From an uncultured Methanosarcinales archaeon (GTDB taxonomy: Archaea; Nanobdellota; Nanobdellia; Woesearchaeales; GW2011-AR9): 64,000 nucleotides of DNA. Position numbers and translations under genes: made by a program. Position 1 is the first letter of the stretch; each line of letters begins with the position of its first letter. The stretch covers positions 6,524 to 70,523 of the forward strand of contig CAZGQD010000005.1 of the NCBI GenBank assembly GCA_964527395.1, given 5' to 3'. The notes under the pieces were generated by a model that was not told the origin of the DNA, made no database searches, and worked only from the letters and a program-made list of their open reading frames with translations. This document shows positions 9,050 through 53,223 of the stretch, piece by piece.

Positions 9050-11650
9050 ATGGCAAGGAGAAATAAAAAGAAGTCTGGTAAATCTGTTTTACCACCTTTG
9101 TTACATGAAGGTCATGGTGAAATGAATAAGGCTTTTGTGCTTGTTATTGTGAGTATTGCTTTGATATTTTTTGGAGTATTATTGATGTTTGTTTTAGATA
9201 AACCAGAAGGGCCTTTGGCAGGACAAGCATATTATGTAGATTTAGTTGGTTGTCCAGATGATACTTTTTGTTTTGAATATGTGGATCCTAGTGAAGAAGG
9301 GGCTTTGACTGGTGTTTCTTCTGCATTAACGCTTGCTCCAAGTGAGGATTTTACTTTAAAAGCAGTTTATCAGTCAAGTGTAGCAGTTAGTGATGTGGCA
9401 GTTGGAGAGATAATTGTTAGTTTTGATCCAAGTTATTTGAGTTATGGAGGAATAAGTTCTTTGTTTGTTGATGAGACAAGTTATTCAATTCAAGAGGAAG
9501 ATAATTCTGGAGATAGTGTTTCAGATACTTTGGTGATCTCATTTTGGGATTTAGATGCTGCATTGTCTTTAGTGTCTGGAAAGAATGATCTTTTTCAGAT
9601 TGATTTTAGTGTTTTGTCTTCTCTAAATGTAGGGGACGTATCTACCGTTAGTTTTGATAGTAATAATTATATTCAAAGTTATGATAGTTCTAGTAATTTG
9701 TTTGTGGATGTTGCAAGTTCAGGGCAGCAGAATGTAGATATTTCTGTTGTTGCAGCTGAAGGAACTGTGAAAGAATTAAGTTGTGGAGATAGTTTAAGTG
9801 ATTTTTCTTCTTATGATGAGTTTACTATTTCAAGTAATGGTCTTGATTGTAGTGGAAATGGTTTAAATTTAAATGTTGAAGATATTAAATTAGACTGTGC
9901 AGGAGCTACTATCTTGGGTGGAAATACAGGTTATGGTCTTTATGTAAGTGCCTCTGATGTTGAAGTGAGTAATTGTATAATTGATGGTTTCGCATATGGG
10001 ATTTTCTTTGATTCTTCTTCTTCAAATAATGTTTTTAATTCTATTGAAGTTTCAAATAGTGGTCAAAGAGGAATTGATGATAACTCAGGTGGAAGTAACA
10101 GTTATAGTGACATTGTTGTTAGTGATGTTTCTGGAAGTACAGCTTTACATGTTAGTTCAAGTAGTAATACTTTTTCTAATTTAGGAATAAATAGAGCAGG
10201 TAATAATGGAATTTATGTAATTGCTTCAAATACGTTTAGTCAAGTTTCTGTAGTTGATTCAACAAGTAAAGGAATTTATGTAGGAGGAGGTTCAAGTGCC
10301 TTTAGTGATGTTTTTATTATGGGAAGTGGGGGAGAAGATATATATTTAAGTTCAGATGATAATGAATTTAATTCAGTAATTGCTTGTGGAGATAGTTCTG
10401 AAAATTTGTTTTGTACATCAGAGTTGTCAGGATTGAGTGGCTCAGAAAATTATTTTGTTAGTGTTTCCACTGATTGTGATGTAACTGGTTTAAGTTATTC
10501 TGCTTGCGAGGTTAATGAAGTTAGTTGTAGTGATGGAGTAGATAATGATGGAGATGGAACTATAGATACAGATGATTCAGATTGTCAAAGTGTTTGTAGT
10601 GATAGTGGAGAAGCAATTTATTATGCAGATGTAGATTTTGATGGTTATGGAGATGCTTCAACTGGTCCAGCTTGTATGTCGGATTTTACTGGTGATTATG
10701 TAGAAGATGATACTGATTGTAATGATAATGATGCTTCAATTTATCCTGGAGCTGTAGAAGTGATTTATGATACAATTGATCAGGATTGTGATGGATTGGA
10801 TTTAAGTTATGGGGATTTAACTGTTGAATCTGATTGTGTTGCTGAAGGAGGTACATGGGATTCTACTAATAGTGATTGTATTGCTCCAACTGAAGGAGCA
10901 GATGCTACTGTAGGGAGTGATGCTGATTTAGATGGTTATTATTCTGAAGATACTGGAGGAGATGATTGTAATGATAATGATGCTTCAATTTATCCTGGAG
11001 CTGTAGAAGTGATTTATGATACAATTGATCAGGATTGTGATGGATTGGATTTAAGTTATGGGGATTTAACTGTTGAATCTGATTGTGTTGCTGAAGGAGG
11101 TACATGGGATTCTACTAATAGTGATTGTAATGAGCCATCTACTGGGCAAGCTTGTACATCATACACTTGGTATTATGATTCAGATGGAGATGGATATGGA
11201 GATCTAGATGTAACTACGGAAGGATGTGATCAACCACAAGATTATGTGAGTAATTCAGATGATTGTGATGATTCTGAAACTGATAGTTCAAATGTTTGCT
11301 CTGATTATGGTGGTGCTTCAGTAGGATTAGTAGATTCTTCTGGAAATTCAGTTGATTTATCTTCTGATTCTTTAACTGTTGGTGAGGAATACATAATTTT
11401 TGCTGAAGTTAGTTCAAGTGATGGTTTTGCTGAACATCTTTTACTTTTACAGGTGGTTTCAGATACCAGTGGGGAAGTTGAATTACTTGCTTTTCAGTCA
11501 ATGCCAGGTATAGCTGTAGGATCAAAAGAATCAATTAGTAACAGTTTTACACCAACTAGCGGTGGGACTTATACTGTGCAGTTATTTGTTTGGGGAGATT
11601 GGCCAGCTAATGGAGGAGGATCTTTGATTCCAAGTGTGACTGTTAGTTAG
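9050..11650 (+). CDS. anchored surface protein: cohesin-like domain, beta-helix, MopE-type repeats, conserved C-terminal domain (paralog of 3724..5823)
   Basis: Basic tail, TM helix, then PLAGQA. Cohesin-like pattern FTLKAVYQSS...LFQIDFSVLSSLNVGDVSTVSFDS. PbH1 repeats. Exact internal 55-aa duplication. C-terminal GEVELLAFQSMP...YTVQLFVWGDWPANGG. Confidence 0.7.
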   Translation: MARRNKKKSGKSVLPPLLHEGHGEMNKAFVLVIVSIALIFFGVLLMFVLDKPEGPLAGQAYYVDLVGCPDDTFCFEYVDPSEEGALTGVSSALTLAPSEDFTLKAVYQSSVAVSDVAVGEIIVSFDPSYLSYGGISSLFVDETSYSIQEEDNSGDSVSDTLVISFWDLDAALSLVSGKNDLFQIDFSVLSSLNVGDVSTVSFDSNNYIQSYDSSSNLFVDVASSGQQNVDISVVAAEGTVKELSCGDSLSDFSSYDEFTISSNGLDCSGNGLNLNVEDIKLDCAGATILGGNTGYGLYVSASDVEVSNCIIDGFAYGIFFDSSSSNNVFNSIEVSNSGQRGIDDNSGGSNSYSDIVVSDVSGSTALHVSSSSNTFSNLGINRAGNNGIYVIASNTFSQVSVVDSTSKGIYVGGGSSAFSDVFIMGSGGEDIYLSSDDNEFNSVIACGDSSENLFCTSELSGLSGSENYFVSVSTDCDVTGLSYSACEVNEVSCSDGVDNDGDGTIDTDDSDCQSVCSDSGEAIYYADVDFDGYGDASTGPACMSDFTGDYVEDDTDCNDNDASIYPGAVEVIYDTIDQDCDGLDLSYGDLTVESDCVAEGGTWDSTNSDCIAPTEGADATVGSDADLDGYYSEDTGGDDCNDNDASIYPGAVEVIYDTIDQDCDGLDLSYGDLTVESDCVAEGGTWDSTNSDCNEPSTGQACTSYTWYYDSDGDGYGDLDVTTEGCDQPQDYVSNSDDCDDSETDSSNVCSDYGGASVGLVDSSGNSVDLSSDSLTVGEEYIIFAEVSSSDGFAEHLLLLQVVSDTSGEVELLAFQSMPGIAVGSKESISNSFTPTSGGTYTVQLFVWGDWPANGGGSLIPSVTVS
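10715..10880 (+). repeat. copy 1 of a perfect 166-bp in-frame direct repeat inside 9050..11650
   Basis: gattgtaatgataatgatgcttcaatttatcctgg...tactaatagtgattgta is identical at 10964..11129. Start-to-start offset is 249 nt (83 codons). Confidence 0.9.
10964..11129 (+). repeat. copy 2 of the perfect 166-bp in-frame direct repeat
   Basis: Identical to 10715..10880. Encodes DCNDNDASIYPGAVEVIYDTIDQDCDGLDLSYGDLTVESDCVAEGGTWDSTNSDC a second time. Confidence 0.9.
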
Positions 11651-13217: not shown

Positions 13218-16200
13218 TTGAAGAAGATGAAGATAAATAATAATCTTGGGAAAAGTATATTTGTATCTTTTGTTTTGAGTGTTTTAGTTTTATGTTCTTT
13301 ATTAGTTTCTTCAGCTGTAGATAGTGAACAAACATATGTTGATAGTAAAGTAATAAGTGAATTTGATGATGAATCTGAAGTTAGAGTACTTGTTAAATTA
13401 AAGGATGATTCAACTGATGCTGCTGAAGAATTTGTTTCAGATTTGGCTTTTGATGTAGAAGCAAAGAGTTCAAATAGTGATTTATTAGGTATTTTAGGTG
13501 TTGAAGAAAAAAATTCTAATTTGGATGAAGGGGATGTTGATGTTGAGAAAGTTTTTGAAGAAAGTTCCGCTGTGGTTTTGACAATTCATGAAGAAGAAGC
13601 ACTTGATTTGTTGATGGAAGATTCTGATGTTGAAGGAATTTACTATGATTATCCTGTTCAAGCATTTTTAGATACAAGTGTTGCACAAATAAATGGAGAT
13701 GATGTTTGGGGTCTTGATTTAGGTTTTGATTTAACTGGTGTTGGTCGTTCAGTTTGTGTAATAGATACTGGAATTGATTATACTCATAGTTCTCTTGATG
13801 GATGTAGTCCTGTGAATTATACAACTAGTGGAGATATAGAAACACTTAGTACTGCAGTTGAATCTGATCATGATTATAGTAACTCTGAAGATGTAACTTA
13901 TACAATTAATATGAGTGGGTATTCAAATATTGCAATTCATTTTAGTAACATCAGTTTAGAAACTCTTGATGCAGGTGATGCTACAGATAGAATCTATGTT
14001 TATAATGAAGATAATGAAACTGTTGCGGTTTATAAAGGAGTTCAGTCAGATATCTGGACGCCATCATCTAATGGATCTATTATGTATGTTCGATTGGTAA
14101 CTGATGGATCTGTAGTTGATTATGGTTTTGTGGTTGATAAAGCAATAAATGGGACTACAAACACTACTGTAAATTGGACTGATTGTCCTCGAATAGCTGG
14201 AGGTTATGATTTATATAATGATGATTCTGATCCTTATGATGATCATGGTCATGGAACCCATGTAGCAGGAATTGTTGGGTCTAACAGTACAACATATATG
14301 GGTGTTGCGCCTAATTCAAGTTTGGTTGCTGTAAAAGTATTGGATTCAAGTGGAAGTGGGTATAGTAGTGATATTGCTGCAGGTGTAGATTATTGTGTGA
14401 ACAATCAAGACAAATTTGGAATTGATGTTATTAGTATGAGTTTAGGTGGAAGTACAGAATATGATTCAGAGTGTAGTTCAGATTTGATAGCCCCTTCAAT
14501 TAAGCGTGCTTATGATGCTGGTATTGCGGTGGTTGTAGCTACAGGTAATGATGGTGCTAGTGACGGTGTTGCTGCTCCTGCGTGTGCTCCTTATGCTATC
14601 CCAGTTGGTTCTACTGATTCAGATAGTACAATTTCGTCTTTTTCTAATGTAGGGAATTTGTTGTCACTTTTGGCACCAGGTTCTTCTATTACTTCTACTT
14701 TTGCTACTGTTGATGGTGCTGGTTTTGGAGCTTTATCAGGAACAAGTATGGCTACACCACATGTTTCTGGGGCTTTTTTGTTGTTTCAACAGTATGCACG
14801 TGAAGTTCATGGAGCTGCGTTTGATCCTTTGGCTGTTGAAAAAAGGTTTAATTCAAGTGGGACTTTTGTAAATGATACTGCAAATTCAGGAAATAATTTT
14901 AATGAAATAGATGTTTTGGCTGCACTTAAACCGCAAATAACTTTTGGAGATTTGGTTGTAAATGATTCAAGTAGTCAAGTAGAACATTATGTGTTTGTAA
15001 ATGTTAGTTCGGATGTAAATTTAAGTATGGCTTTGTTAGAATGGGACCATAGTAATGGTACTTTTGAAAATATTACAATGACTCAAGAGAATGAGACTCA
15101 ATTTGTTTACAATATGACTGGACTTAAAAGTGGTTTAGATTATTTTGCAGTTTATGGAAATGATTCTTATTTGATGGGGGAAACAGAGTTACGTGATGTA
15201 ACAATTATTTCTGATTTGAAGGCTGCTTTAAATAATCCTTTGAATAATAGTGTTCATGCAAGTGGATTTTATGTTAATTTGTCATTTTTGTCTAACCAAA
15301 CTAATTTAAGTTATGCTAATGTTAGTATTTTTAATAGTAGTTCTAATGAAGTAGTTCTTGTAGGTGGATCTGCTGATTCTATTTGGGCTGCAAGTTATAA
15401 TTTTAGCTTTTTGTTTAATATAACAAATTCGTCTTTTGCTCATGGTAATTATACTTTGCTTTATTTTGCTAATAACAGTGAAGGGGAAGAATTTTTAGAA
15501 AATACCAGTTTGTATATTGATCTTGTTGATCCTAGTTTGTCTACTGTTTCATCATCTGATGTACATGTTAATGTTAGTGATACTGTTTTGTTTCAAGTTA
15601 ATGTGACAGATGATTTTGTGAATGAGAGTTATGTATATTTTGAAAGTAATTTTACTGGAAGTTTTGTTAATTATTCTATGACAACAACTGATAATTATAC
15701 TTATAATTATAGTTTAGATGGTTTAGGTAACTTAAGTGGTTCAGAAAAAGTTGGTTATTCTATTAATGCATATGATAAAGCTGGTAATGGCGTTGTTAGT
15801 AGTTCTGCTACTTTTACAGTTCAAAACAATGCTGTAGATTATGTAAATATTACTAGTCATGATAATGGGACTCAGATTGAGTTAGGAGCCCTTGTTAATT
15901 ATACTGTAGATGCAACAGACAATGATAGTGATTCATTTACTTATGAGTGGAATTTTAGTGATGGAGATTCTAATGTGAATTATTCTGATCAGAATGTGTC
16001 TTATGCTTTTAGTAATATGGGTGAAAATACTATCTTTGTTAGGGCAGATGATGCTAATAGTACTTTGATGTATAATATTACGGTCTATGTAAATGATACA
16101 GTAGGACCAAATATAAGTTCTTTGACAGTGAGTAATATTAGTACTAGTTCTGGAGTAGCAGAAGCTCAGACTGTGCGGGCTACAGGTGCTGATTTGAATA

Positions 16201-16892
16201 ATGTTAGTTCAATTAATTTGTATTATGATGGGGATTTGGTTAATAGTAGTGAATTAACTAATAGTTCAGGAAATTGGACATTTGGTAGTTTTTCTTCGAC
16301 AGAGTCAGATGTGTCTTTTATAATTGAAGTAGTAGATAATTCAACTAATTATAATAAACGTAACCATACTTTTACTTTTGATGTAACTGCTTCAGGTTCT
16401 GGAAGTTCTGGAGGTGGAGATTCAGGAGGTAGTAGTGGTGGATCTTCTGGAGGAGGAGGTGGTGGATCTAGTTCATCTTCATCTAGTTCTTCAACTGAGA
16501 TCTCTGAGGAAGAAGCTTCAAGTGAAGAAAGTGGATCTGAGGATTCTACTGAGTTTGGAGAAACTGATGGGTCTGAAGAAGAAGTTGAAGAAGATAATGC
16601 TGAAGCTGAAGAAGAAGTTAAAGATGAATGTGGAGATAGTTTTTTGTCTAAGGCTTTATGTTGGATTAAGTCTGTTGTGAATACTGTTACTGGAGCAGTA
16701 ACTGGGACGGGGAACGCAGTTTTTGTAGATGCGGAAGGGTCTGTTGATTCAGAAGAAACTGGTGAAGTGATGTCTGTTCCGGAATCAGAAGATAATTCTG
16801 GTCCGGGAATAAAATTTGTAGGGATGTTGTTTTTAGGTGTTTTAGGGTTATTTGGTGTATATGCATTAGTTAGACCTAAAGGAGGCTATTAA
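13218..16892 (+). CDS. giant secreted subtilisin-like (S8) serine protease with inserted CUB-like domain, PKD-like region and C-terminal TM anchor
   Basis: Catalytic Asp in VCVIDTGIDY, His in HGHGTHVAG, Ser in SGTSMATPHVSG. 13218 is TTG; first ATG is at 13227. Very many NxS/T sequons. G/S and E-rich linker. C-terminal GPGIKFVGMLFLGVLGLFGVYALVRPK. Confidence 0.85.
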   Translation: MKKMKINNNLGKSIFVSFVLSVLVLCSLLVSSAVDSEQTYVDSKVISEFDDESEVRVLVKLKDDSTDAAEEFVSDLAFDVEAKSSNSDLLGILGVEEKNSNLDEGDVDVEKVFEESSAVVLTIHEEEALDLLMEDSDVEGIYYDYPVQAFLDTSVAQINGDDVWGLDLGFDLTGVGRSVCVIDTGIDYTHSSLDGCSPVNYTTSGDIETLSTAVESDHDYSNSEDVTYTINMSGYSNIAIHFSNISLETLDAGDATDRIYVYNEDNETVAVYKGVQSDIWTPSSNGSIMYVRLVTDGSVVDYGFVVDKAINGTTNTTVNWTDCPRIAGGYDLYNDDSDPYDDHGHGTHVAGIVGSNSTTYMGVAPNSSLVAVKVLDSSGSGYSSDIAAGVDYCVNNQDKFGIDVISMSLGGSTEYDSECSSDLIAPSIKRAYDAGIAVVVATGNDGASDGVAAPACAPYAIPVGSTDSDSTISSFSNVGNLLSLLAPGSSITSTFATVDGAGFGALSGTSMATPHVSGAFLLFQQYAREVHGAAFDPLAVEKRFNSSGTFVNDTANSGNNFNEIDVLAALKPQITFGDLVVNDSSSQVEHYVFVNVSSDVNLSMALLEWDHSNGTFENITMTQENETQFVYNMTGLKSGLDYFAVYGNDSYLMGETELRDVTIISDLKAALNNPLNNSVHASGFYVNLSFLSNQTNLSYANVSIFNSSSNEVVLVGGSADSIWAASYNFSFLFNITNSSFAHGNYTLLYFANNSEGEEFLENTSLYIDLVDPSLSTVSSSDVHVNVSDTVLFQVNVTDDFVNESYVYFESNFTGSFVNYSMTTTDNYTYNYSLDGLGNLSGSEKVGYSINAYDKAGNGVVSSSATFTVQNNAVDYVNITSHDNGTQIELGALVNYTVDATDNDSDSFTYEWNFSDGDSNVNYSDQNVSYAFSNMGENTIFVRADDANSTLMYNITVYVNDTVGPNISSLTVSNISTSSGVAEAQTVRATGADLNNVSSINLYYDGDLVNSSELTNSSGNWTFGSFSSTESDVSFIIEVVDNSTNYNKRNHTFTFDVTASGSGSSGGGDSGGSSGGSSGGGGGGSSSSSSSSSTEISEEEASSEESGSEDSTEFGETDGSEEEVEEDNAEAEEEVKDECGDSFLSKALCWIKSVVNTVTGAVTGTGNAVFVDAEGSVDSEETGEVMSVPESEDNSGPGIKFVGMLFLGVLGLFGVYALVRPKGGY

Positions 16893-17799: not shown

Positions 17800-19386
<1,587 letters not shown>

Positions 19387-19487: not shown

Positions 19488-19559
<72 letters not shown>

Positions 19560-19703: not shown

Positions 19704-19844
19704 AGTCTACAATTATTATAATTGTAGTATTATTATAAGTAAAGAAATGGGAATCGTCTTTAAGACGATTTTCGTGACTGGAAATTCACAGAAATGTGAG
19801 TTTATTTTGTAATGTAAAAAAACTTTGATTTTTTAAATCAAAGT

Positions 19845-22800
19845 AAACCTACTGTAAACTATTAGGTGGATGACTTGGCTCAAGCGCCGATGAAGGACGT
19901 GGCAAGCGACGATATGCCTAGGCGAGCCGAAAGCAGGCTTTGAACCTAGGATTTCCGAATAAGACATCTGTTTAAGCCCATTAGGGCTAGGGAACGCAGG
20001 GAATTGAAGCGTCTTAGTACCTGCAGGAAAAGAAAGCAATAGCGATGCTGTGATTAAGAGCGACTGAAAGCAGCACAGTTCAAACTGAATCCTATGCAGT
20101 AATGCATAGGAGATGTGGTGTTGAGGACTTTCTTTTAGACCGTTTTTTTGACTTGAAATTTTTTGGAAAATTATACCTTAGAGGGTGATAGTCCCGTAAA
20201 GGAAGAGAAAATGGTTTTGGAAGTATCCTGAGTAGTGTCTCCTGGAAACGAGGCATGAATGTGGGGCGCACTAAGCCCCAAAACTAAATACGTCTTGAGT
20301 CCGATAGCAAACGAGTACCGTGAGGGAATGTTGAAAAGTACCCGTAAAAGGGAGTTAAAAGACCTGAAACCTAATAGTGATAGAGTGGTAGTGCCTTTCG
20401 AGGTTCTACCGTTCGTTTTGAATAACGTGCCAGGGAGTGTATCTATGTGGCAAGGAGGAATCCGCAGCGAAAGCGAGATCCCGCAACTTGTGAGGGGAGT
20501 GGTATGAAAGTGCCATAAGTCACGTGGATACGACCTGAAACCGGTCGATCTATTCTTGGGCAAGGTGAAGTGGGGGTAAGACCCCATGGAGGCCTGAAGG
20601 AGTTCTGTGTGCAAGCGTTTCTCTGACCTGAGAATAGGGGTGAAAAGCCAATCGAGATCGGCGATAGCAGGTTCCTAATGAAATTGACCTTAGTCAAGTC
20701 TTGTATGAGAGTGAATAGGTTGTAGAGATACGGATTGGGGGTTTTGGCGGGGAAACCTGTCGGCCTCCTGTCCAACTCCAAATGCCTATTCCTTGTAGAA
20801 TACAGGAAACAGGGAGTCTTGGGGTAAACTTGACTTCCGAGAGGGGAACAACCCAGACTATGGTTAAGGCCCCTAAGTGTCAGCTAAGTGATAAAGGGTA
20901 AACGGTGTCCGTGATCTTAGACAGCGAGGAGGTTGGCTTAGAAGCAGCCATCCTTTAAAAAGTGCGTAACAGCTTACTCGTTGAGTTCGTAAGCCTCGAA
21001 GATTGACGGGTCTAAGTTAGCTGCCGATACCATAGACCACGATAAGTGGGTGTAATTAGGCGTTCTGTTAGGGTAGAAGGAAGTGTGTGAGCATTTTTGG
21101 ACCTTGCAGAAATGAAAATCCTGGTGAGAGTAGGAACAGAGCAAAGTGAGATTCTTTGTCGTCGTAAGGGCAAGGGTTCCTTGGCAATGAACATCAGCCA
21201 AGGGTTAGTCAGTCCTAAGGAATTCCGTAACCGGATAATCCGATAGGGAAACAGGTTAATATTCCTGTACTATTTTTGTATATGTGGTGACACAAGGTCA
21301 TCTTTCTGACACTTTGGGATATGCGTTGGAGTTTTATCTGACTCTTTAATTAGGATAAGTCAATGGAGTACCGTAACGGTGAGAAGTTGAGTAAAACTAA
21401 GAATAGTGGGCCTATGGTCCATTTCGCAGATTCCTGGAGTCCATGAAAAGGGAAGTGACATAAATCAAAAATAACTGTACCCAGAACCAGCACTGGTGCC
21501 CCTAGGTGAGAAGCCTAAGACGTGCAAGAGTAATCCATCTAAGGGAATTCGGCAAATTAGTCCCGTAGCTTCGGTTGAAGGGATCCCTGGACTCGTCCTT
21601 TAGGGAGCGAGTTCAGGGCGCAGTGACTAGGGTGGTCCGACTGTTTACCAAAAACAAAACATCCTGCTAGTCGGAAACGATGTGTATAGGATGTGATACC
21701 TGCCCAGTGCGAGTACTTTAAGCCTCGTTTCAACGGGGTGAAGAGCTTGTAAACGGCGGGAGTAACTATAACTCTCTTAAGGTAAGCACTTTCGTTGCTT
21801 TAAGATCCATAGTAAACAGATCGGTTATACTAAAGAAGAATGGAATAAAAATTTGGCTATATGCTGGAAAGTCTGAGTATATTATGATAGGATATTATCT
21901 TGGTGACAGGATAACGATCCCTAAAAATTCATAATTGCAGAAAATCAGCAGGAAAGATTTCTTTGAATTAATTATTTTAAATTTGTTTAAAGAAAAATCC
22001 TCAGAGACTACACGCCAAACACAATAAATTAGTAATTTTTTATTTGTGAAGATATAGTCCGACCTGTATAGCGATATACAGAGGTTAGCAGAAATGTCTA
22101 GCCCGCCATGAATTAATTTTGTGGTAAGTAAACTAATAATTAGTTGAAGTAACAGATGTGAGCGAAATGCCTTGTCGGTTGAATGCCGACCTGCATGAAT
22201 GGTATAACGAGATCGCCACTGTCCCTAGATGGAGTCTTCCGAACACTCCTTTCTGGTGCAAAGGCCAGAGATTTCCAGTGGGAAGCGAAGACCCCGTGAA
22301 ACTTTACTGTAGCCTGTCGCTGTGTTTTGAATTATGTTGTATAGCGTATGTGGGAGCTGTTTGAGGTTAATGACGTCAGTTAGTAACTGAGGCGCCAATG
22401 TAACACCACACTTTATGATTTAGAACACTTACGTGTTTAACACGGACAACGATTGGTGGACAGTTTGGCTGGGGTGGCACGCAGTTGAAAAGATATCAAT
22501 TGCGCCCAATGGTAGGCTCATACGGTTTAGAAATCCGTAGTAGAGTGCAAGGGCAAACGCCTGCCTGATTGAATTTTAAACATAACGAAATTCAAACACG
22601 AAAGTGTGGCCTAGCGAACTTCAATACTTTACTAGTGAGAGTTTGAAATGACTGAAAAGTTACTCCGGGGATAACTGAGTTGTCGCGCCCGAGAGTCCAT
22701 ATCGACGGCGCGGTTTGCTACTTCGATGTCGGCTCTTCCTATCCTGGCGGTGCAGAAGCTGCCAAGGGTGGGGGTGTTCACCCATTAAAAGGGATCGTGA

Positions 22801-23108
22801 GCTGGGTTCAGAACGCTGTGAGGCAGTTTGTTTGATATCTACTGGGAATGTTACAAATCTGATAGGAAGGAGTTCTTAGTACGAGAGGAACGGAACTTCG
22901 GAGCCACTGGTGGATCTGTTGTCTGATAAGGCACGCAGAGCAGCTACGCTCCAAGCGATAAGTGCTGAACGCATCTAAGCACGAAGCGTACCTAGAAAAG
23001 AGATTTGATGGGACACGGGAAAAAGACCCGTTTGATAGAAGTGCTGTGTACGGCTCGAGCTTCGGCGAGAGTTTTAGCAGGCACTCACTAACGTCCATAT
23101 TTGGTTTT
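19845..23108 (+). rRNA. 23S rRNA (ends +/-20 nt), interrupted by a 377-nt group I intron
   Basis: 5' ggtggatgacttggctcaagcgccgatgaaggacgtg. Domain IV ggcgggagtaactataactctcttaaggt|...|agcgaaatgccttgtcgg. gggataactgagttgtcgcgcccgagag. 3' region gctgaacgcatctaagcacgaagc. Confidence 0.9.
21784..22160 (+). ncRNA. group I self-splicing intron, ORF-less, inserted after the U equivalent to E. coli 23S U1931
   Basis: 5' exon ends in U and the intron ends in G. P1 pairs tcttaaggt(21775-83) with gctttaaga(21797-805) and has a terminal U.G pair. P10 pairs tttcgtt(21790-96) with agcgaaa(22161-67). P tgctggaaag 21862, Q aatcagcagg 21943, R tcagagactacacg 22001, S aagatatagtcc 22049. Confidence 0.85.
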
Positions 23109-23139
23109 TACATAACAAAACCTACTTATGATACTAAAC

Positions 23140-30513: not shown

Positions 30514-30683
30514 TTAGTGACCTGTTTTAATGAGATTGTTTTGTGTGACTACAAATCGAGAAATTCTTTTGTTTTTTGAGAGATGTGGTTTTTATCTGTT
30601 CTAGAATAATTATTTTTATTCCTGCTTGGGTTTAATACCCCGCAGTTCTACTGCGGTTGGGATGCTTAATTGTGAAGAGCAGT

Positions 30684-31334
30684 TTAAGCAGATGTTTGAT
30701 TAGTTATTACAATTTTGATAGTTTTTTTTTTGTTTGAAAATTCTTTTATTTTTATTAAATTGGAGTCATTTAGTAATTGGTCAATTCCGTTATTTTTTTG
30801 GAAACTTTTGAAGCCTTTGAAATGATTTGATCCTGCAAGAAATTCAATTATTTTGACTATATCTCCAAAGATATTTTTGGGTTGTGGAGTAGAATAATCT
30901 GCAATGATGATGTTTTTTGAGATACGTTTTGCTTCTTTAAGAACTCTGATTCTTAGGTCTTGAGGGACTTCATGAAGCATCATAGAAATTGTTGCATAAT
31001 CAAATTCTTGGTCTTTGAATTTTGGTAAGTTTGTTGCATCAGCATGAATAAAAGTGATATTGTTATTTTTTGTATGTGTTTGTTCGTTTCTTAATTTTTG
31101 GCGTTTTTTGGCATGTTTGATCATTATTGAGGAAAGTTCTATTCCTATTACTGATTTGCATTTATTTGATAGGTCAAAAACTAGTGAGCCTGTACCACAA
31201 GCAATGTCGATTACTTTACTGTTAGGTTTTATTTGCTTAGTGATGATTTTTCTTATTTCTTTTAAAGGAGTATCAAATATAATTTCGTGGATTTTTCCAT
31301 CATAATAATGAATTTTATCATTCTTTTTAGTCAT
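30684..31334 (-). CDS. class I SAM-dependent methyltransferase
   Basis: Motif I VIDIACGTGSL, then VIGIELS and FIHADATNLP. It lacks the NLPY motif of KsgA. Last gene of the L21e-RpoF-DUF655 cluster. Confidence 0.7.
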   Translation of the reverse strand: MTKKNDKIHYYDGKIHEIIFDTPLKEIRKIITKQIKPNSKVIDIACGTGSLVFDLSNKCKSVIGIELSSIMIKHAKKRQKLRNEQTHTKNNNITFIHADATNLPKFKDQEFDYATISMMLHEVPQDLRIRVLKEAKRISKNIIIADYSTPQPKNIFGDIVKIIEFLAGSNHFKGFKSFQKNNGIDQLLNDSNLIKIKEFSNKKKTIKIVITNQTSA

Positions 31335-32964: not shown

Positions 32965-34854
32965 ATGGCTGAAAATTTGGAAAAAAAGGAAGTTTTAGAG
33001 CCTAAGAATAAAAGTTCAGGTAAGAAAAAGCATGCTCAGGCGCTTGCAAATGCTGATGAATCGTTTTATTCAGACTTAGCTGATGCTTTAGTAGATTTAG
33101 GTGAGAATGTTCCTCGTAAAGAAATAGATAAATTGAAGCGAAAATTGTCTGCTAAATATAGATTGCCTAAGATTCCAACAAATATAGAAGTTTATTTGAG
33201 GGTTCCCGTTGATAAGCGAGATCTTGTTAAGAAGAAACTGATGACAAAACCAGTTAGGAGTATTTCTGGAGTTTCACCGATTGCGATTATGACAAAACCA
33301 ATTGGATGTCCGCATGGGAGATGTATTTATTGTCCAGGAGGACCAGGATCTGTTTTTGGGGATGTACCGCAAAGTTATACTGGAAAAGAGCCAGCGAGTA
33401 TGAGGGCGATTCGTAATAAATTTGATGCTTATTTACAGGTTTTTAATCGACTTGAGCAATATGTGATTTTAGGGCATAGTTTTACTAAAAATGATGTAAT
33501 TATTATGGGTGGGACATTTCCTTCTTTTCCACTAGATTATCAAGATGAGTTTATAGCTTTAACGTATAAAGCAATGAATGATTTTTCAGAAATGTTTTTT
33601 GATTCTGACGGTAAGTTTGATTTAGATAAGTTTATTGCTTATTTTGAGCTTCCTGGAGATATTCGTGATGCTGAAAGGACCAAACGTATTCAAAAGAAGC
33701 TTTTGAAGCATAAGAATCTAAGAGAAGCTAGAGGATCTAAGAGATTAGGTGGGTTGGAGGAGTCTGAAGAATCTAGGGAATTAGGAGAAATTGGGAAAAA
33801 AGGAGAAGTTGTTGTGTCTGATCTTGAAGAAGAGAAAAGACGTAATGATGAAGAATCTTATGTAAAATGTATTGGACTTACTATTGAAACCAAGCCAGAT
33901 TGGGCTTTGCTTGATCATGCTAAACAGATGTTGAGGTTAGGATGTACACGAGTAGAGCTTGGAGTTCAGACAACGAATGCAGAGATTACTGCTCGGACAA
34001 ATAGAGGGCATAGTCAAGAAGAGACTGTTGAATCTATTAAGGTGCTTCGTGATTTAGGATTTAAACTTAATTTTCATATGATGCCTGGGCTTCCGGGGAG
34101 TAGTGAGGGAGAAGATGTAAAGATGCTTTGTGAGGTAGTGTCTGATTCGCGTTATATGCCTGATATGTTGAAGATTTATCCTTGTATGGTAATGCCTGGA
34201 ACGCCTCTTAAAAAGCTGTTTGATGCTGGCAAATTTGAGCCTATGGAGACAGATGGAGCAATAAGAGTGATTTCTTCTTTTATTGAGGCTGGAGTGCCGG
34301 AATGGGTGCGTATTATGAGGGTTCAGCGTGATATTCCAACATATAGGACAACTGCAGGGGTGGATAAAACAAATCTGCGACAGATGCTTGAGAAGCAAAT
34401 GAATGAGAAAGGAATAGTTAGTCGAGATATTCGTGCTCGTGAGCCTAAAAGAAAAGAGATTGATTTTGAAGCAGTTGAATTAGTGGTTCGGTCTTATGAT
34501 GCTTCTGCTGGGAAGGAGTACTTTATCTCTTTTGAGGATCTTTCTAATGATTTGATATTAGGATTTATTAGACTTAGGTTTCCAAATTCTGGGCTTGTGC
34601 CTGAGATAAATTCAGATTCTGCTTTGATTCGTGAGTTGCATGTCTATGGACAAGCTTTGGCGCTTGGGAAGGAATCTAGTGAAGGAGTTGTTCAGCATAA
34701 AGGTTTTGGGCGTAAGCTACTTGCTAAAGCAGAAGAGATTGCTCGTGAAGCTTGCAAGAAGAAGATGGTGATTATTAGTGGAGTAGGAGTTAGAGGTTAT
34801 TATGAGAAGTTTGGGTATAAGCGAGATGGACCTTATATGAGTAAAAATTTTTGA
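32965..34854 (+). CDS. elp3: Elp3-type radical SAM / GNAT tRNA-modification enzyme
   Basis: CPHGRCIYCPGG radical-SAM cluster site. C-terminal GNAT motif HKGFGRKLLAKAEEIA. Contains a charged ~45-aa insertion (REARGSKRLGGLEESEE...). Confidence 0.9.
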   Translation: MAENLEKKEVLEPKNKSSGKKKHAQALANADESFYSDLADALVDLGENVPRKEIDKLKRKLSAKYRLPKIPTNIEVYLRVPVDKRDLVKKKLMTKPVRSISGVSPIAIMTKPIGCPHGRCIYCPGGPGSVFGDVPQSYTGKEPASMRAIRNKFDAYLQVFNRLEQYVILGHSFTKNDVIIMGGTFPSFPLDYQDEFIALTYKAMNDFSEMFFDSDGKFDLDKFIAYFELPGDIRDAERTKRIQKKLLKHKNLREARGSKRLGGLEESEESRELGEIGKKGEVVVSDLEEEKRRNDEESYVKCIGLTIETKPDWALLDHAKQMLRLGCTRVELGVQTTNAEITARTNRGHSQEETVESIKVLRDLGFKLNFHMMPGLPGSSEGEDVKMLCEVVSDSRYMPDMLKIYPCMVMPGTPLKKLFDAGKFEPMETDGAIRVISSFIEAGVPEWVRIMRVQRDIPTYRTTAGVDKTNLRQMLEKQMNEKGIVSRDIRAREPKRKEIDFEAVELVVRSYDASAGKEYFISFEDLSNDLILGFIRLRFPNSGLVPEINSDSALIRELHVYGQALALGKESSEGVVQHKGFGRKLLAKAEEIAREACKKKMVIISGVGVRGYYEKFGYKRDGPYMSKNF

Positions 34855-41095: not shown

Positions 41096-44000
41096 TCAGT
41101 TAGATTCAATAGTTTCACTTGTTTCTTGATTTTCTTCTGGGCCAAGGTAGGTTTCGAATTCGTTTTCTGAAATAACTGTTGTTCCTTGAAGTATTTTCAT
41201 GTTGATGTTGTATGTTCCTTCTGTGTAGATTTCTGGATTATACTCGAATTGTTGTGCGAATATGAATCCTTCTTCTGATTCTACTGGGTATGGACCGTAG
41301 AGTTCAGAGAAATATGTTTTTTGACTTGGAAAGAATCTGCCAATGATAGGTATTTTAGAGAGTGTGCTTTTTTCACTTTCTTTTATAATGTTTATTTCAA
41401 GGTAATAATCGTCATTTGAGATGAATTCGAATACTTTGTTTTGGTCAGTTGATCCAATTAGGTTTCCAGTGATGCTGTTTGAAGCAGTGCTGTCTGAATT
41501 AGATTCTGTTGCTTCTTCATCTTTATTTTCATTGTTTTCTTCTTTTCCATCTTCTTTTTCACTTTCTTTATTATTTATGATCATAGAATAAAGATCCAAT
41601 GTGTTTTTTGTTGTGTCTGGGATAACAGCACTAGCAATTGTTGGAATGTTTTTTATGTTGATTTCTTGTTCAAGGATGGTTCCATCATAAGCAGCTAGTT
41701 CTATTTTAATTGGAATGCTATTTTCTGTACTGAACCCGCTTAAAATGTCTAAATCTAAATCTAATTTTTCTCCAGGTTTTAAGTTAATAATATCTGCATT
41801 TGCTAGGTTTGCTGCTAACAAATCTCCTTCAATTGTAGTTTTTGATGTTTTTAGGCCTTTTTTGATTTTTTCATTTGATAATTGTTTTCTAGTGACGATT
41901 AATTTAGTTTCTTCTTTAGGTGTTTGAAGAATTGGTTTTAGTTGCATTTCTTTATCCCCGGTATTTTCAAGTTTGAATGTAATAGTTTGTTTAGTTTGTT
42001 TAGCAGTAGCAATTGCATCTTGTTTGTTTTGAATTTTAGAGATAGTTTTAGTAGTAGTTTTATCAAGTGAGTTTTGAGTAGAGCTGTCTTCTTGACTATC
42101 TTCTAGACTTGTTGTACTGGATGGAATAGTTTTTGTAGTTGAAATTTTAAGATTTTCTTTGATTTTTTGAATGTCTTTGAACATATCTTTAGTAGGAGGA
42201 GGTAGAGATTCACCTGATTCTATTCTGAGGATTTGTTTTTTTAGTTCTTGGTCGTATCCTAGATTTTGAATATTTAAGATTAGGTTTTTTGGTGGAAGGG
42301 ACTCTTGTGTTTGAGTTGAGTCTTTTGGTGGAAGAGTAGTAGATTGTTTAGGAGGTTTTGGAGGTAATGATTCTTTTGGTGGTAATGGGGAATCGCTTGA
42401 GCTAGGTGAAGAAGTTCCACTACTACTTCCACCACCAACAAAACAAGTTTGGCTTGTTGCTGGTTTATTGAATAAAGTAACACAAGCGTTGTTGTCCACA
42501 CAATTTCTGATTCTTGTGTTAGTTTGACCATTACAGCCAGACCAAGAGGTACAAGTCCAAAATTCGTTACAAAGCATTAATGGGAGGATGTCTCCTTGAG
42601 ATGTTGGTGTAATATCATCGTCGTTGTCCCAAGGAAGCTGTGTGTCTCCAATAAAGTCGTTACTTACAGTTGAAGGGTAAGCAATTCCACCACCATTGTC
42701 TCTACCAGAATAATTATTCCAGTAATTTCCACCAGAGCAGTTTCCACCAATTATGTTTGAGTAAGAATCTGAACATGCATAAGATCCATTCCAAGAGTTA
42801 ACACGGAGTGTAGATATAGCATTATTTGCAGAAGCATTTAAGATATTGTTAATGATGGTGTTGTTTCCTGAGGTAACAAATCTGATTGCAGTAGTGTCTG
42901 TGAATTCATTATGGAAAATTGAGTTGTTTGTAGAGTCTACAAAATAAATACCTTCAACATTAGTACTGAAGTTTATCCATGTTATGTTTGATTTTGATAA
43001 ATTGTCTCCTAATATCCCATCTGAGAAATTAATTATTGAACCGTTTAGAATAGTGATGTTATTTATATCTGTTAATGTGAAACCTCTTTTGCTTTTAACT
43101 CCAGTGATGTTGTATCCGTTTAGATCTAAAGTGAGATTGTCTGTTTGAATATCATAGCAATGTTGAGGTCCAGTTTGAATGTTTTCGTTCCATGTATAAC
43201 TTTGGTTGATGTCTCCACATTGTTTTATGTCAATTGTGTGATTAATCCAGCTTGAATTTGTGATGTTATCTGAAGATTTGAAACCACAAGTGTAATTGTC
43301 ATTGTAACTGGTTAGCATTGAACTGACATTTATTAATTCGTGAAGAGTGTTGTTAGTTACATTCTTTGCTCCTGAATTGATTAAAACAGTGCTGTTGTAT
43401 AATTCCCAATATATTGTTAAGTTTGTAGTTTGATTATCTTCTAAGTTGATGAAACAACTAACATTGTCAAGTGTAAGGTTTGAAGTACTAGTTGTGTTTG
43501 AAATGGCTATTAAAAAGCCAGGAGGGATGTTTTCTTGTGTTTCGTATGTGCTAAATCCTTGTACATTAAATTTGAGTGTGTTTGTGCTGTTTTCATAGCT
43601 TGTAATGTTTGTGGAACTAGTATTATCTGATCTGATGCCATCTTTTAAGATAAAAGGTTGATAATTGTATTCTGGGCTGTAAAAAGTGATGTTAGCAGTA
43701 GTGTTTAATTGTTTTAGGCCAGATTTGTTTGCTATTCCGATAGAATTGCTGTTTAAGAAGATGGTATCTTTAAGAGCAATAGTTTCGTTTCTAATAGTTG
43801 CGTTGAGAACTGTCCAGTTGATGTTTCCAAAACTGTTGTTATATGTAATTATTACTGTTCCTTTTGTGTCTTGATCTTCTATTGTGATGTTATGAACGTT
43901 GATAGTAAGGTTGTTATTAAGTAAGTAGGTATGATTTGTTCCAAGCCCTAAAGTAATTCCACCTTCTATGTTCTCGAAAAAGGTATTATTAATCATTTTA

Positions 44001-44659
44001 GTGTCATTTCCATTTGCTATTTTAATTCCAAATTCTACATTTTCAGTAAGATTGTTTTCTTGGTAAGTATTATTGTTTGTTTGGTCGTTTTCAAAGCCAA
44101 TGCTATTGTTGTAAATATTGTTTTTATAGAAAAATGATGCATTGGTGTTTTCTAATAAGAATGATTTGTTGTTAATTGTGAAATTGTTTTCTAGAATTTG
44201 AAGATTAGTTGTATTTGTTGTATTTATAGCAACAGTGTTGTTGAAAAAATAAATATTCTCAGCAGTTAAGTTGTTTTTGATTCCATTTACTTCAATAGCG
44301 CTTTCGAATTGAGAGATATTTAGTAAGTTTTTGATAACAACTGTAGTAGTGGAGTCATTAATTATGAATGCTGAACCAGTATTGTCTCCAGATACTCCGT
44401 AACCTGCACCATCAATTACAATATTGTTTCCAATAACATTGAAACAGTTTCCTGTAGCAGTTATGTCTGCCGTTAAGGTTGTGGTAGTTGTGATGTCTTG
44501 ACATGCTGCTACTTTAACTTGAGGGTTATCAGGATTTGCTACAGCTGCACCAGTAAGTAGGTTATTAGAAGATAAACTATCGTTTAAAATTAAGATTCCG
44601 CTGGTGAATAGAATTAAAGAAATAAATAGAATAACCAATGCGTTTTTGTGCCACCTCAT
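41096..44659 (-). CDS. giant (1187 aa) anchored beta-helix surface protein, extremely rich in NxS/T sequons
   Basis: TM helix then LLTGAAV. Long runs of PbH1-like repeats (NNIVIDGAGYG, NNTVAINTTN, ...). CNEFWTCTSWSGCNGQTNTRIRNC module. SLPPK repeats. Acidic C-terminal region. Confidence 0.7.
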   Translation of the reverse strand: MRWHKNALVILFISLILFTSGILILNDSLSSNNLLTGAAVANPDNPQVKVAACQDITTTTTLTADITATGNCFNVIGNNIVIDGAGYGVSGDNTGSAFIINDSTTTVVIKNLLNISQFESAIEVNGIKNNLTAENIYFFNNTVAINTTNTTNLQILENNFTINNKSFLLENTNASFFYKNNIYNNSIGFENDQTNNNTYQENNLTENVEFGIKIANGNDTKMINNTFFENIEGGITLGLGTNHTYLLNNNLTINVHNITIEDQDTKGTVIITYNNSFGNINWTVLNATIRNETIALKDTIFLNSNSIGIANKSGLKQLNTTANITFYSPEYNYQPFILKDGIRSDNTSSTNITSYENSTNTLKFNVQGFSTYETQENIPPGFLIAISNTTSTSNLTLDNVSCFINLEDNQTTNLTIYWELYNSTVLINSGAKNVTNNTLHELINVSSMLTSYNDNYTCGFKSSDNITNSSWINHTIDIKQCGDINQSYTWNENIQTGPQHCYDIQTDNLTLDLNGYNITGVKSKRGFTLTDINNITILNGSIINFSDGILGDNLSKSNITWINFSTNVEGIYFVDSTNNSIFHNEFTDTTAIRFVTSGNNTIINNILNASANNAISTLRVNSWNGSYACSDSYSNIIGGNCSGGNYWNNYSGRDNGGGIAYPSTVSNDFIGDTQLPWDNDDDITPTSQGDILPLMLCNEFWTCTSWSGCNGQTNTRIRNCVDNNACVTLFNKPATSQTCFVGGGSSSGTSSPSSSDSPLPPKESLPPKPPKQSTTLPPKDSTQTQESLPPKNLILNIQNLGYDQELKKQILRIESGESLPPPTKDMFKDIQKIKENLKISTTKTIPSSTTSLEDSQEDSSTQNSLDKTTTKTISKIQNKQDAIATAKQTKQTITFKLENTGDKEMQLKPILQTPKEETKLIVTRKQLSNEKIKKGLKTSKTTIEGDLLAANLANADIINLKPGEKLDLDLDILSGFSTENSIPIKIELAAYDGTILEQEINIKNIPTIASAVIPDTTKNTLDLYSMIINNKESEKEDGKEENNENKDEEATESNSDSTASNSITGNLIGSTDQNKVFEFISNDDYYLEINIIKESEKSTLSKIPIIGRFFPSQKTYFSELYGPYPVESEEGFIFAQQFEYNPEIYTEGTYNINMKILQGTTVISENEFETYLGPEENQETSETIESN

Positions 44660-53097: not shown

Positions 53098-53223
53098 GGC
53101 GGTGTGGCTTAGTCTGGTCTATGGCGCTGTGCTCATATGTAATTGAGCGATGAGACTTAATTGTCGATGACTTATTCAACCTGGGCGACACAGAAGTCCC
53201 GCGTTCAAATCGCGGCACCGCCA
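53098..53223 (+). tRNA. tRNA with CAT anticodon (elongator Met or Ile2) carrying a 50-nt intron at 37/38
   Basis: Acceptor GGCGGTG/CACCGCC. Anticodon stem CTGTG/CACAG. Loop CT-CAT-A then intron 53138..53187. BHB: CTCA/TGGG central helix with bulges TAT and CGA. T arm CCGCG-TTCAAAT-CGCGG. Confidence 0.8.

Follow-up and report, generated by a model that had tools for sequence, protein, structure and literature searches.

The question raised by this locus is what kind of element splits the archaeal 23S rRNA gene and how it would be removed from the transcript. The analysed stretch of DNA, hereafter the window, is 64,000 nucleotides long, and all features described below lie on its plus strand. 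The host gene (19842..23110) was recognised with the Rfam model of the archaeal LSU rRNA, RF02540, which matched over model positions 1-2987 with 2473 bits in a search of the whole window, and it carries one interruption. Approximately 378 nt at the H69-H71 linker did not align to RF02540, and this gap gives the position of the insert. We are highly confident that the insert at 21784..22160 is an ORF-less IB4-type group I intron at L1931 in a Woesearchaeota-like DPANN host. It is 377 nt long and follows the nucleotide equivalent to E. coli U1931. The IB4 label is a probable one and derives from homology with an IB4 intron already published. The host was assigned to Woesearchaeota-like DPANN archaea from the Elp3 encoded in the window, whose best matches were in Woesearchaeota and Nanoarchaeota MAGs.

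The junctions read ...ctcttaaggt(21783)/aagcac...gatgtg(22160)/agcgaaatgcc. The sole alternative allowed by the sequence is a shift by +1 (A/A), and a U at position -1 together with a G at the intron end is obtained only with the 21783/22160 placement, not with the shifted one. The junction rule used here reproduced exactly the published coordinates of IB4.12 (AQRL01000028.1 30565-31289). When nucleotides were counted directly in rrlB of E. coli K-12, the T of GTCCTAAGGT/AGCG came out as number 1931, so the site is U1931/A1932 in domain IV. An earlier interpretation made from the letters alone (the sequence-only reading) had proposed a 377-nt split of the gene at this site, with a 5' exon ending in U and an intron ending in G. 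The gap in the LSU model match and the rrlB count confirmed the split, and the two terminal nucleotides are indeed U21783 and G22160.

The Rfam model RF00028 (Intron_gpI) was searched against the whole window, where it scored 67.7 bits with E = 4.9e-15, and against the sub-region 21650-22300, where it scored 71 bits with E = 5.4e-18. Both scores are significant against the threshold of 50 bits, which is the Rfam curated gathering threshold for RF00028; a covariance-model search with the Rfam group I model had been proposed by the sequence-only reading. An nhmmer sequence profile of 22 archaeal L1931 introns, from which the window was left out, matched 21772-22172 over its full length (E = 3.9e-74, 245 bits). 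All 81 positions that are invariant in the 22 relatives were kept in the window, as were 34 of the 35 near-invariant positions. The single departure was T21799, which gives a G.U pair in P1 where most relatives have G-C.

The structure from P1 to P10 was built by hand, and 100 of its 100 pairs were canonical in the window. In the set of 23 sequences, pairing was seen in 89.4% of the cells, compared with 35-46% when the partner was slid, a comparison in which the structure is favoured by its own derivation from the window sequence. Compensatory changes, in which both sides had changed, were found in 55 of 94 pairs across the 23 sequences, and none of 500 shuffles reached any of the observed covariation measures. 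The family alignment (MAFFT, 698 columns) was unreliable in P9.1-P9.3, where 66-88% of the cells were paired. The conserved core P3-P8 with the P3/P7 pseudoknot was present and supported by covariation. Free-energy folding alone (z = -3.7) recovered P1, P2, P4-P6, P8 and P9-P9.3, including the whole P4-P5 domain and all three peripheral 3' hairpins. Every structural claim on which the group I reading had been based, that is, the U.G in P1, P10, the P, Q, R and S elements and the terminal G, holds.

P1 is formed by 9 bp between the 5' exon strand TCTTAAGGT (21775..21783), which ends in the 5' splice-site U21783, and the internal guide sequence GCTTTAAGA (21797..21805), which is the 3' strand of P1. 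Its closing pair is U21783.G21797, and all 23 family members have this U.G; the pairing of exon and guide that closes on this wobble had been read correctly from the sequence. The Rfam placement of P1/P2 in the upstream exon (21716/21754 onward) was rejected as wrong. The P10 guide TTTCGTT (21790..21796) forms 7/7 canonical pairs with AGCGAAA, the P10 strand of the 3' exon (22161..22167), which bears out the proposal that the 7 nt on the 5' side of the guide pair with the start of the 3' exon. In the family, P10 was well kept only in the three pairs that lie closest to the internal guide sequence, and 68.8% of the cells were paired. The P2 hairpin (21806..21844), with the stem TCCAT/ATGGA (21806-21810 with 21840-21844), occurs in some relatives only. 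The stem pairs of P2 that the alignment keeps in one helix were compensatory in 4 of 4 cases. The P2 loop contains the motif GTTAAACAG, for which no pairing partner was found.

P3 consists of 6 bp between TTTGGC (21852..21857) and GCCAAA (22014..22019), with compensatory changes in 4/6 pairs and 98.6% of cells paired. The P4-P5 domain (21862..21950) was defined by pairing and covariation. P4 (21862-21867 with 21945-21950) is nearly invariant and corresponds to the classical P and Q elements. It is followed by P5 (21872-21875 with 21938-21941; compensatory in 3/4 pairs), P5a (21881-21887 with 21929-21935; 7/7 pairs), P5b (21888-21891 with 21920-21923; nucleotides 21924-21928 form an A-rich bulge) and P5c (21895-21900 with 21909-21914; compensatory in 6/6 pairs). 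The P6 region, with an A+T-rich loop, spans 21951..22000 and contains P6 GG/CC (21951-21952 with 21999-22000) and P6a (21958-21961 with 21992-21995; compensatory in 4/4 pairs). The 5' strand of P7, GAGACTA (22004..22010), is the R element; it holds the bulged A22005 and pairs with TAGTCC (22055-22060), with compensatory changes in 3/6 pairs and 99.3% of cells paired. From general group I architecture, G22006-C22059 would be the guanosine-binding pair. The P8 hairpin (22020..22048; CACAA/TTGTG, 22020-22024 with 22044-22048) was compensatory in 5/5 pairs. The S element (22049..22060) comprises J8/7 AAGATA (22049-22054) and the 3' strand of P7, and the J8/7 positions 22049-22052 and 22054 (A, A, G, A and A) are invariant in the family. 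The starts of the P, Q, R and S elements had been placed correctly before (TGCTGG at 21862, AATCAGCAGG at 21943, TCAGAGACTACACG at 22001 and AAGATATAGTCC at 22049), and P4 and P7 pair as described there.

The P9 hairpin (22064..22081) has 7 bp and the GNRA tetraloop GCGA (22071-22074), and it was compensatory in 6/7 pairs with 96.9% of cells paired. Each of the 23 members has GCGA, GTGA or GCAA as its loop. The peripheral 3' hairpins (22083..22145), each with some compensatory changes, are P9.1 (22083-22088 with 22098-22103), which has a conserved AGAAAT loop, P9.2 (22106-22109 with 22121-22124) and P9.3 (22131-22136 with 22140-22145). P9.0, the pairing of J7/9 with the 2 nt that precede the terminal G, was sought by eye and was inconsistent across the relatives. 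In the last segment (22149..22160), a short spacer that varies among the relatives separates GTAACA (22149-22154) from the final nucleotide of the intron, G22160 (omega G). Both GTAACA and this G were invariant in 23/23 members; a search for a pairing partner of GTAACA found none.

The longest ORF within the insert encodes 30 aa. The ORFs of the insert had no Pfam match at E <= 1, and no remnant of a homing endonuclease was found in it, in agreement with the ORF-less description given by the sequence-only reading. Relatives of 693-772 nt have ORFs of 164-218 aa between the 3' strand of P4 and the 5' strand of P7, that is, in the P6 loop. For IB4.12, LAGLIDADG_1 is listed in the supplementary table of Nawrocki et al. 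(PMC6125680). Because the window intron has no homing endonuclease gene, whereas relatives have a LAGLIDADG ORF in their P6 loop, it is presumably immobile, and it would have been inherited vertically or would be the remnant left after ORF loss.

Nawrocki, Jones and Eddy described 39 archaeal group I introns in 2018 (NAR 46:7970, PMC6125680), and the commonest class among them was subgroup IB4 at LSU/1931. The published IB4 LSU/1931 set includes ORF-less Woesearchaeota examples, such as IB4.2-IB4.5 of 311-403 nt, and co-occurrence with BHB introns (PMC6125680). The window intron is absent from the published 39, none of which is 377 nt long. About 50 further archaeal introns were found in GTDB representative genomes. 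The rarity of archaeal group I introns that had been implied at first does not stand: the class has been known since 2018 (PMC6125680) and is frequent in DPANN genomes. The window intron shares with the archaeal IB4 LSU/1931 introns the site, the host lineage, the P7 strands GAGACUA/UAGUCC and the existence of ORF-less versions of similar size, but it differs in its A+T-rich P6 loop, which is longer, in the G.U in P1 and in a P2 that is missing from many of them. IB4.12 matched the same profile in two pieces that flank its ORF (5.1e-36 and 1.1e-23). The nearest relatives were approximately 70-77% identical to the window intron, and the nearest one found (L167) reached approximately 77% over 253 conserved columns. 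Near-identical copies were sought with a window-specific 35-mer from the P2 region, which was absent from the GTDB representative genomes, and with a 22-mer spanning the guide sequence, which was absent from JGI metagenome contigs.

The bacterial L1931 introns (those of Thermotoga, and L001-L016 of Gammaproteobacteria and CPR) resemble the window intron in site, helices and an identical core of 24 nt. They differ in that their host genes are bacterial and that the proteobacterial copies form a clade apart from the archaeal ones. In a crude NJ tree of 253 columns, the window intron was placed among the archaeal introns, and six proteobacterial introns formed their own clade. The L1931 introns of Thermotoga are said to carry a LAGLIDADG ORF. 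A paper in the reference list of Nawrocki et al. (Nesbo and Doolittle 2003, PNAS 100:10806) reportedly calls the Thermotoga 23S rRNA introns active and self-splicing in its title.

The same rRNA operon has a second insert. The 16S insert of 116 nt (18528-18643) folds as a bulge-helix-bulge (BHB), and its removal would give the correct mature sequence, which fits the earlier remark on a 16S intron of the protein-spliced type. Elsewhere in the window, an interrupted tRNA(CAU) at 53098-53223 looks like an endonuclease substrate.

The 23S insert could in principle be a BHB intron as well, removed by the tRNA splicing endonuclease and a ligase and perhaps derived from a group I intron; the derivation of BHB introns from group I introns is reportedly the hypothesis of Tocchini-Valentini. 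The organism uses BHB splicing, and its 16S insert and tRNA(CAU) look like endonuclease substrates. Archaeal BHB rRNA introns also occupy conserved sites in rRNA genes and are ORF-less or carry LAGLIDADG genes, but they are protein-spliced (EndA and ligase) and have the BHB motif at the junction, which is present at the 16S insert and absent from the 23S insert. The motif was taken as two 3-nt bulges with the splice sites, a 4-bp helix between them and at least one flanking helix. At both placements allowed for the 23S junctions, the central helix had 2/4 bp and the flanking helices had 0-1 bp, so the sequence-only reading was right that no BHB fold can be built there. The only nearby solution with 4/4 pairs (21781/22164) would miss the conserved mature sequence. 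A complete group I core under selection also speaks against this explanation, and we consider it very improbable. Somewhat less improbable, although still unlikely, is a decayed group I intron, which would have kept the fold and lost autonomous splicing, and which would depend on a host protein or sit in a non-functional rRNA copy. In its favour, neither a homing endonuclease nor a maturase is encoded in the insert, protein cofactors are required by many organellar group I introns, and the 64-kb window shows a single rRNA operon, so that a second intact copy may exist elsewhere. However, the insert has lost none of its helices and none of the 81 positions that are invariant in the family, and the Rfam scores of the host rRNA genes (2473 and 1404 bits) are those of full-length genes. 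Introns of the same ORF-less form are present in 22 other archaeal genomes, and the changes among them are compensatory and not disruptive, a sign of purifying selection on the fold.

An artefact of assembly or binning, in which a bacterial or organellar fragment bearing the intron was joined to an archaeal contig, would be in line with the 24-nt core CCTCAGAGACTACACGCCAAACAC, which is identical in LSU genes of Gammaproteobacteria, Gracilibacteria and Paceibacterota. This is extremely improbable: the exon flanks CTCTTAAGGT and AGCGAAATGCC are both archaeal and continuous with the archaeal LSU model match, the crude tree groups the window intron with archaeal introns and separates the proteobacterial ones, and the archaeal profile scores 245 bits on the window versus 129-142 bits on bacterial L1931 introns.

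As a group I intron, the insert would be self-splicing by the general group I chemistry. In the folded pre-23S rRNA, the 5' exon end TCTTAAGGU would pair with the internal guide sequence to form P1 with its closing U.G. An exogenous guanosine would dock in P7 at G22006-C22059, beside the bulged A22005, and attack after U21783. G22160 would then take the place of the guanosine in the P7 pocket, with P10 aligning the 3' exon. Finally, the 3'-OH of U21783 would attack after G22160, by which ...AAGGU-AGCGAAA... would be ligated and the intron released.

The window intron is one more intact ORF-less example of a class documented since 2018, and it leaves the general picture unchanged. The L1931 IB4 family, whose 24-nt catalytic core is identical in DPANN archaea, CPR bacteria and Proteobacteria, may still move between domains, and ORF-less copies like the one in the window would then be recent remnants of invasions and not old vertical passengers; we regard this as rather unlikely. 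The placement in the crude tree argues against a recent cross-domain origin of the window copy, not of the family. In practice, the 377-nt insert and the 116-nt 16S insert must be stripped when DPANN genomes are annotated or placed in phylogenies on the basis of rRNA. The window intron, which measures 377 nt, has a fully canonical structure and keeps every position that is invariant in the family, is a convenient candidate for the biochemical proof of archaeal group I self-splicing. One rRNA operon here holds an intron of the ribozyme type, for which ribozyme splicing is the probable route, together with an intron of the endonuclease type, and this combination bears on the idea that BHB introns arose from group I introns.

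The + strand of the window holds an archaeal 16S-tRNA(Ala)-23S operon that is complete; Rfam resolves it into an SSU rRNA gene (17800-19384), tRNA(Ala) (19488-19559) and an LSU rRNA gene (19842-23110, 2473 bits). No 5S rRNA gene was found by Rfam at any place in the 64 kb. Within the LSU gene, approximately 378 nt in the strictly conserved H69-H71 linker did not align to the archaeal LSU model. Direct reading of the junctions (...ctcttaaggt ending at 21783, aagcac...gatgtg ending at 22160, then agcgaaatgcc) gave an insert of 377 nt at 21784-22160, the same split that the sequence-only reading had described. A single alternative placement exists, shifted by +1. Only the former placement leaves U as the last base of the 5' exon and G as the last base of the intron, as had been claimed. 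Counting along rrlB of E. coli K-12 puts the T of GTCCTAAGGT|AGCG at nucleotide 1931; therefore, the site label U1931 (L1931) was correct. Without the intron, the LSU gene is approximately 2892 nt, below the 2987 positions of the archaeal model.

The general group I model of Rfam, RF00028 (threshold 50 bits), matched the insert, and did so on no strand but +. It scored 67.7 bits (E = 4.9e-15) when the whole window was searched and 71 bits on the sub-region around the insert. The alignment covered P3, P4, P5, P6, P8 and P9 and the consensus strings of J6/7, P7 and J8/7. It placed P1/P2 in the upstream exon, which is wrong for this intron and is an error to which the model is known to be prone. 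A structure was built by hand with P1, P10, P2, P3, P4, P5, P5a-c, P6, P6a, P7 (with bulged A22005), P8, P9 (with a GCGA tetraloop) and P9.1-P9.3. In the window, each of its 100 pairs is canonical. The P1, P10, P4 and P7 helices read earlier from the sequence hold, and the P3-P9 core can be folded. Unconstrained folding of a 401-nt fragment, a method whose prediction range does not include the P3/P7 pseudoknot, recovered P1, P2, P4-P6, P8 and P9-P9.3 (z = -3.7). ORFs inside the insert reach at most 30 aa and gave no Pfam match, in agreement with its description as ORF-less. The observation is thus confirmed, and its interpretation as a group I intron is supported.

Covariation was measured on a MAFFT alignment of 23 sequences, the window intron and 22 ORF-less archaeal relatives, using the structure derived from the window. 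In this alignment, which is not structure-aware in variable loops, 89.4% of cells were paired, versus 35-46% when the 3' partners were slid by 1-3 columns; deriving the structure from the window in itself favours it in that comparison. Both sides changed in 55 of 94 pairs, and none of 500 shuffles reached any of five covariation measures. Compensatory pairs occurred in P2, P3, P5, P5a, P5c, P6a, P7, P8, P9 and the P9.x hairpins. The invariance of P4 and of most of P1 makes them uninformative, and in P10 conservation was limited to the three pairs closest to the guide sequence. GTAACA (22149-22154), 3-6 bases before the terminal G, was invariant in 23/23 members, and most members having P2 carry a loop motif GTTAAACAG (GTAAACAG in the window, 21814-21820). 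Because no pairing partners were found for either in the 23-member alignment, both may be tertiary contacts.

An exact 24-mer of the J6/7-P7-P3' span was present in 16 GTDB representative genomes. Six of these loci were scanned with Rfam, and all six lay inside LSU rRNA genes, bacterial or Nanoarchaeota. A pattern joining the conserved intron 3' end to an archaeal exon was found at no fewer than 119 loci. Among the matches listed were at least about 50 archaeal LSU genes, labelled mostly Woesearchaeota, Nanoarchaeota or Pacearchaeota, with the insert exactly between CTCTTAAGGT and AGCGAAAT and ending in G. Of the archaeal L1931 introns listed, 22 were ORF-less (255-433 nt) and the others were roughly 590-770 nt. 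All seven longer introns examined (693-772 nt) encode a 164-218 aa ORF in the P6 loop, bounded by the 3' strand of P4 and the 5' strand of P7. A profile from the 22 ORF-less relatives, with the window left out, matched 21772-22172 end to end (245 bits, E = 3.9e-74). The window intron kept 81/81 invariant and 34/35 near-invariant positions; the sole exception, T21799, changes a P1 G-C to G.U and also occurs in two relatives. Two or three related IB4-type introns were found in each of three bacterial LSU genes, L005 and L014 (Proteobacteria MAGs) and L003 (Gracilibacteria). They are crowded into a stretch of domain IV a few dozen bases long, at about L1917-L1931 and again near L1950, and some contain endonuclease ORFs.

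Other readings of the insert were considered. The canonical BHB has two 3-nt bulges around a central helix of 4 bp; tested against it, the 23S junctions gave 2/4 central and 0-1 flanking pairs. The reading as an endonuclease-spliced intron was rejected, in line with the sequence-only reading, which had been unable to build a BHB at the junctions. A chimera was rejected as well: the exon sequence is archaeal on either side of the insert and continuous, and in a crude NJ tree of 253 columns the window intron grouped with archaeal copies, with six proteobacterial L1931 introns forming their own clade. A decayed ribozyme is an unlikely alternative; that every invariant position is kept, and that ORF-less relatives show compensatory changes, argues instead for a selected fold.

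The 16S gene contains a 116-nt insert (18528-18643) that would be released by cuts behind 18527 and 18643; it interrupts the conserved sequence GGATTAGAT/ACCCCAGTAGTCC, near E. coli 793/794. The insert can be folded into a BHB whose central helix (TTAG/CTAA) is 4/4 paired, with 3-nt bulges, an inner helix of 7 bp and, beyond one A.C mismatch, an outer GGG/CCC helix. Its excision would restore the correct mature GGATTAGAT/ACCCCAGTAGTCC. It is likely an endonuclease-spliced intron, and the fold and predicted mature sequence agree with its earlier assignment to the protein-spliced type. A 126-nt tRNA gene with anticodon CAT (53098-53223) was called by Rfam, not by ARAGORN; its insert of approximately 52 nt directly follows anticodon-loop position 37, the canonical archaeal tRNA intron location.

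Outside the rRNA genes, the window has 30-36% G+C. The proteins most similar to its Elp3 homologue (32965-34854) came from MAGs of Woesearchaeota, Nanoarchaeota and Nanobdellota, the first at 70% identity and the remainder at approximately 50%. In many TPA MAG records titled 'uncultured Methanosarcinales archaeon' (L102, L120, L122, L125, L162, L167, L194, L207 and many Elp3 loci such as L019 and L022), Elp3 and LSU/intron sequences group with Woesearchaeota. These records are probably mislabelled in their titles. Strand asymmetry is unusually strong and uniform: GC skew, (G-C)/(G+C), stays above zero in all 2-kb bins of 1-64000 (0.07 to 0.48), even across stretches whose long ORFs are encoded on the minus strand. 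The rRNA operon is flanked by large proteins predicted to be surface-located or secreted (9050-11650, 13218-16892, 41096-44659); among their features are beta-helix/NosD repeats, MopE-type metal-binding motifs and an S8 subtilase that has PKD domains.

In 2018, Nawrocki, Jones and Eddy (PMC6125680) described 39 group I introns of archaea, 27 of them IB4 and 12 IA3, every one from a metagenome-derived sequence and most commonly at LSU/1931; IB4.2-IB4.5 are ORF-less, 311-403 nt, from Woesearchaeota. The P7 published for these IB4 introns (GAGACUA/UAGUCC, second base bulged; PMC6125680) is identical to window 22004-22010/22055-22060. When the junction rule of the window intron was used on locus L140 (AQRL01000028.1), it returned exactly the published IB4.12 coordinates, 30565-31289, and IB4.12 matches a profile that also matches the window intron. 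No intron among the 39 has the 377-nt length of the window intron (PMC6125680), and the nearest relative among the matches listed shares approximately 77% identity over conserved columns. Therefore, the window intron is a new individual member of a class already described in 2018.

The direct evidence for this intron comprises its fold, conservation, covariation, splice-site nucleotides and guide pairings. By general group I chemistry, guanosine would bind at the P7 pair G22006-C22059 and attack after U21783, omega G22160 would dock in the guanosine's pocket, and the exons would be ligated under P10 alignment. We infer that the intron would be self-splicing and that, because it has no ORF, the window copy would be unable to home by itself.
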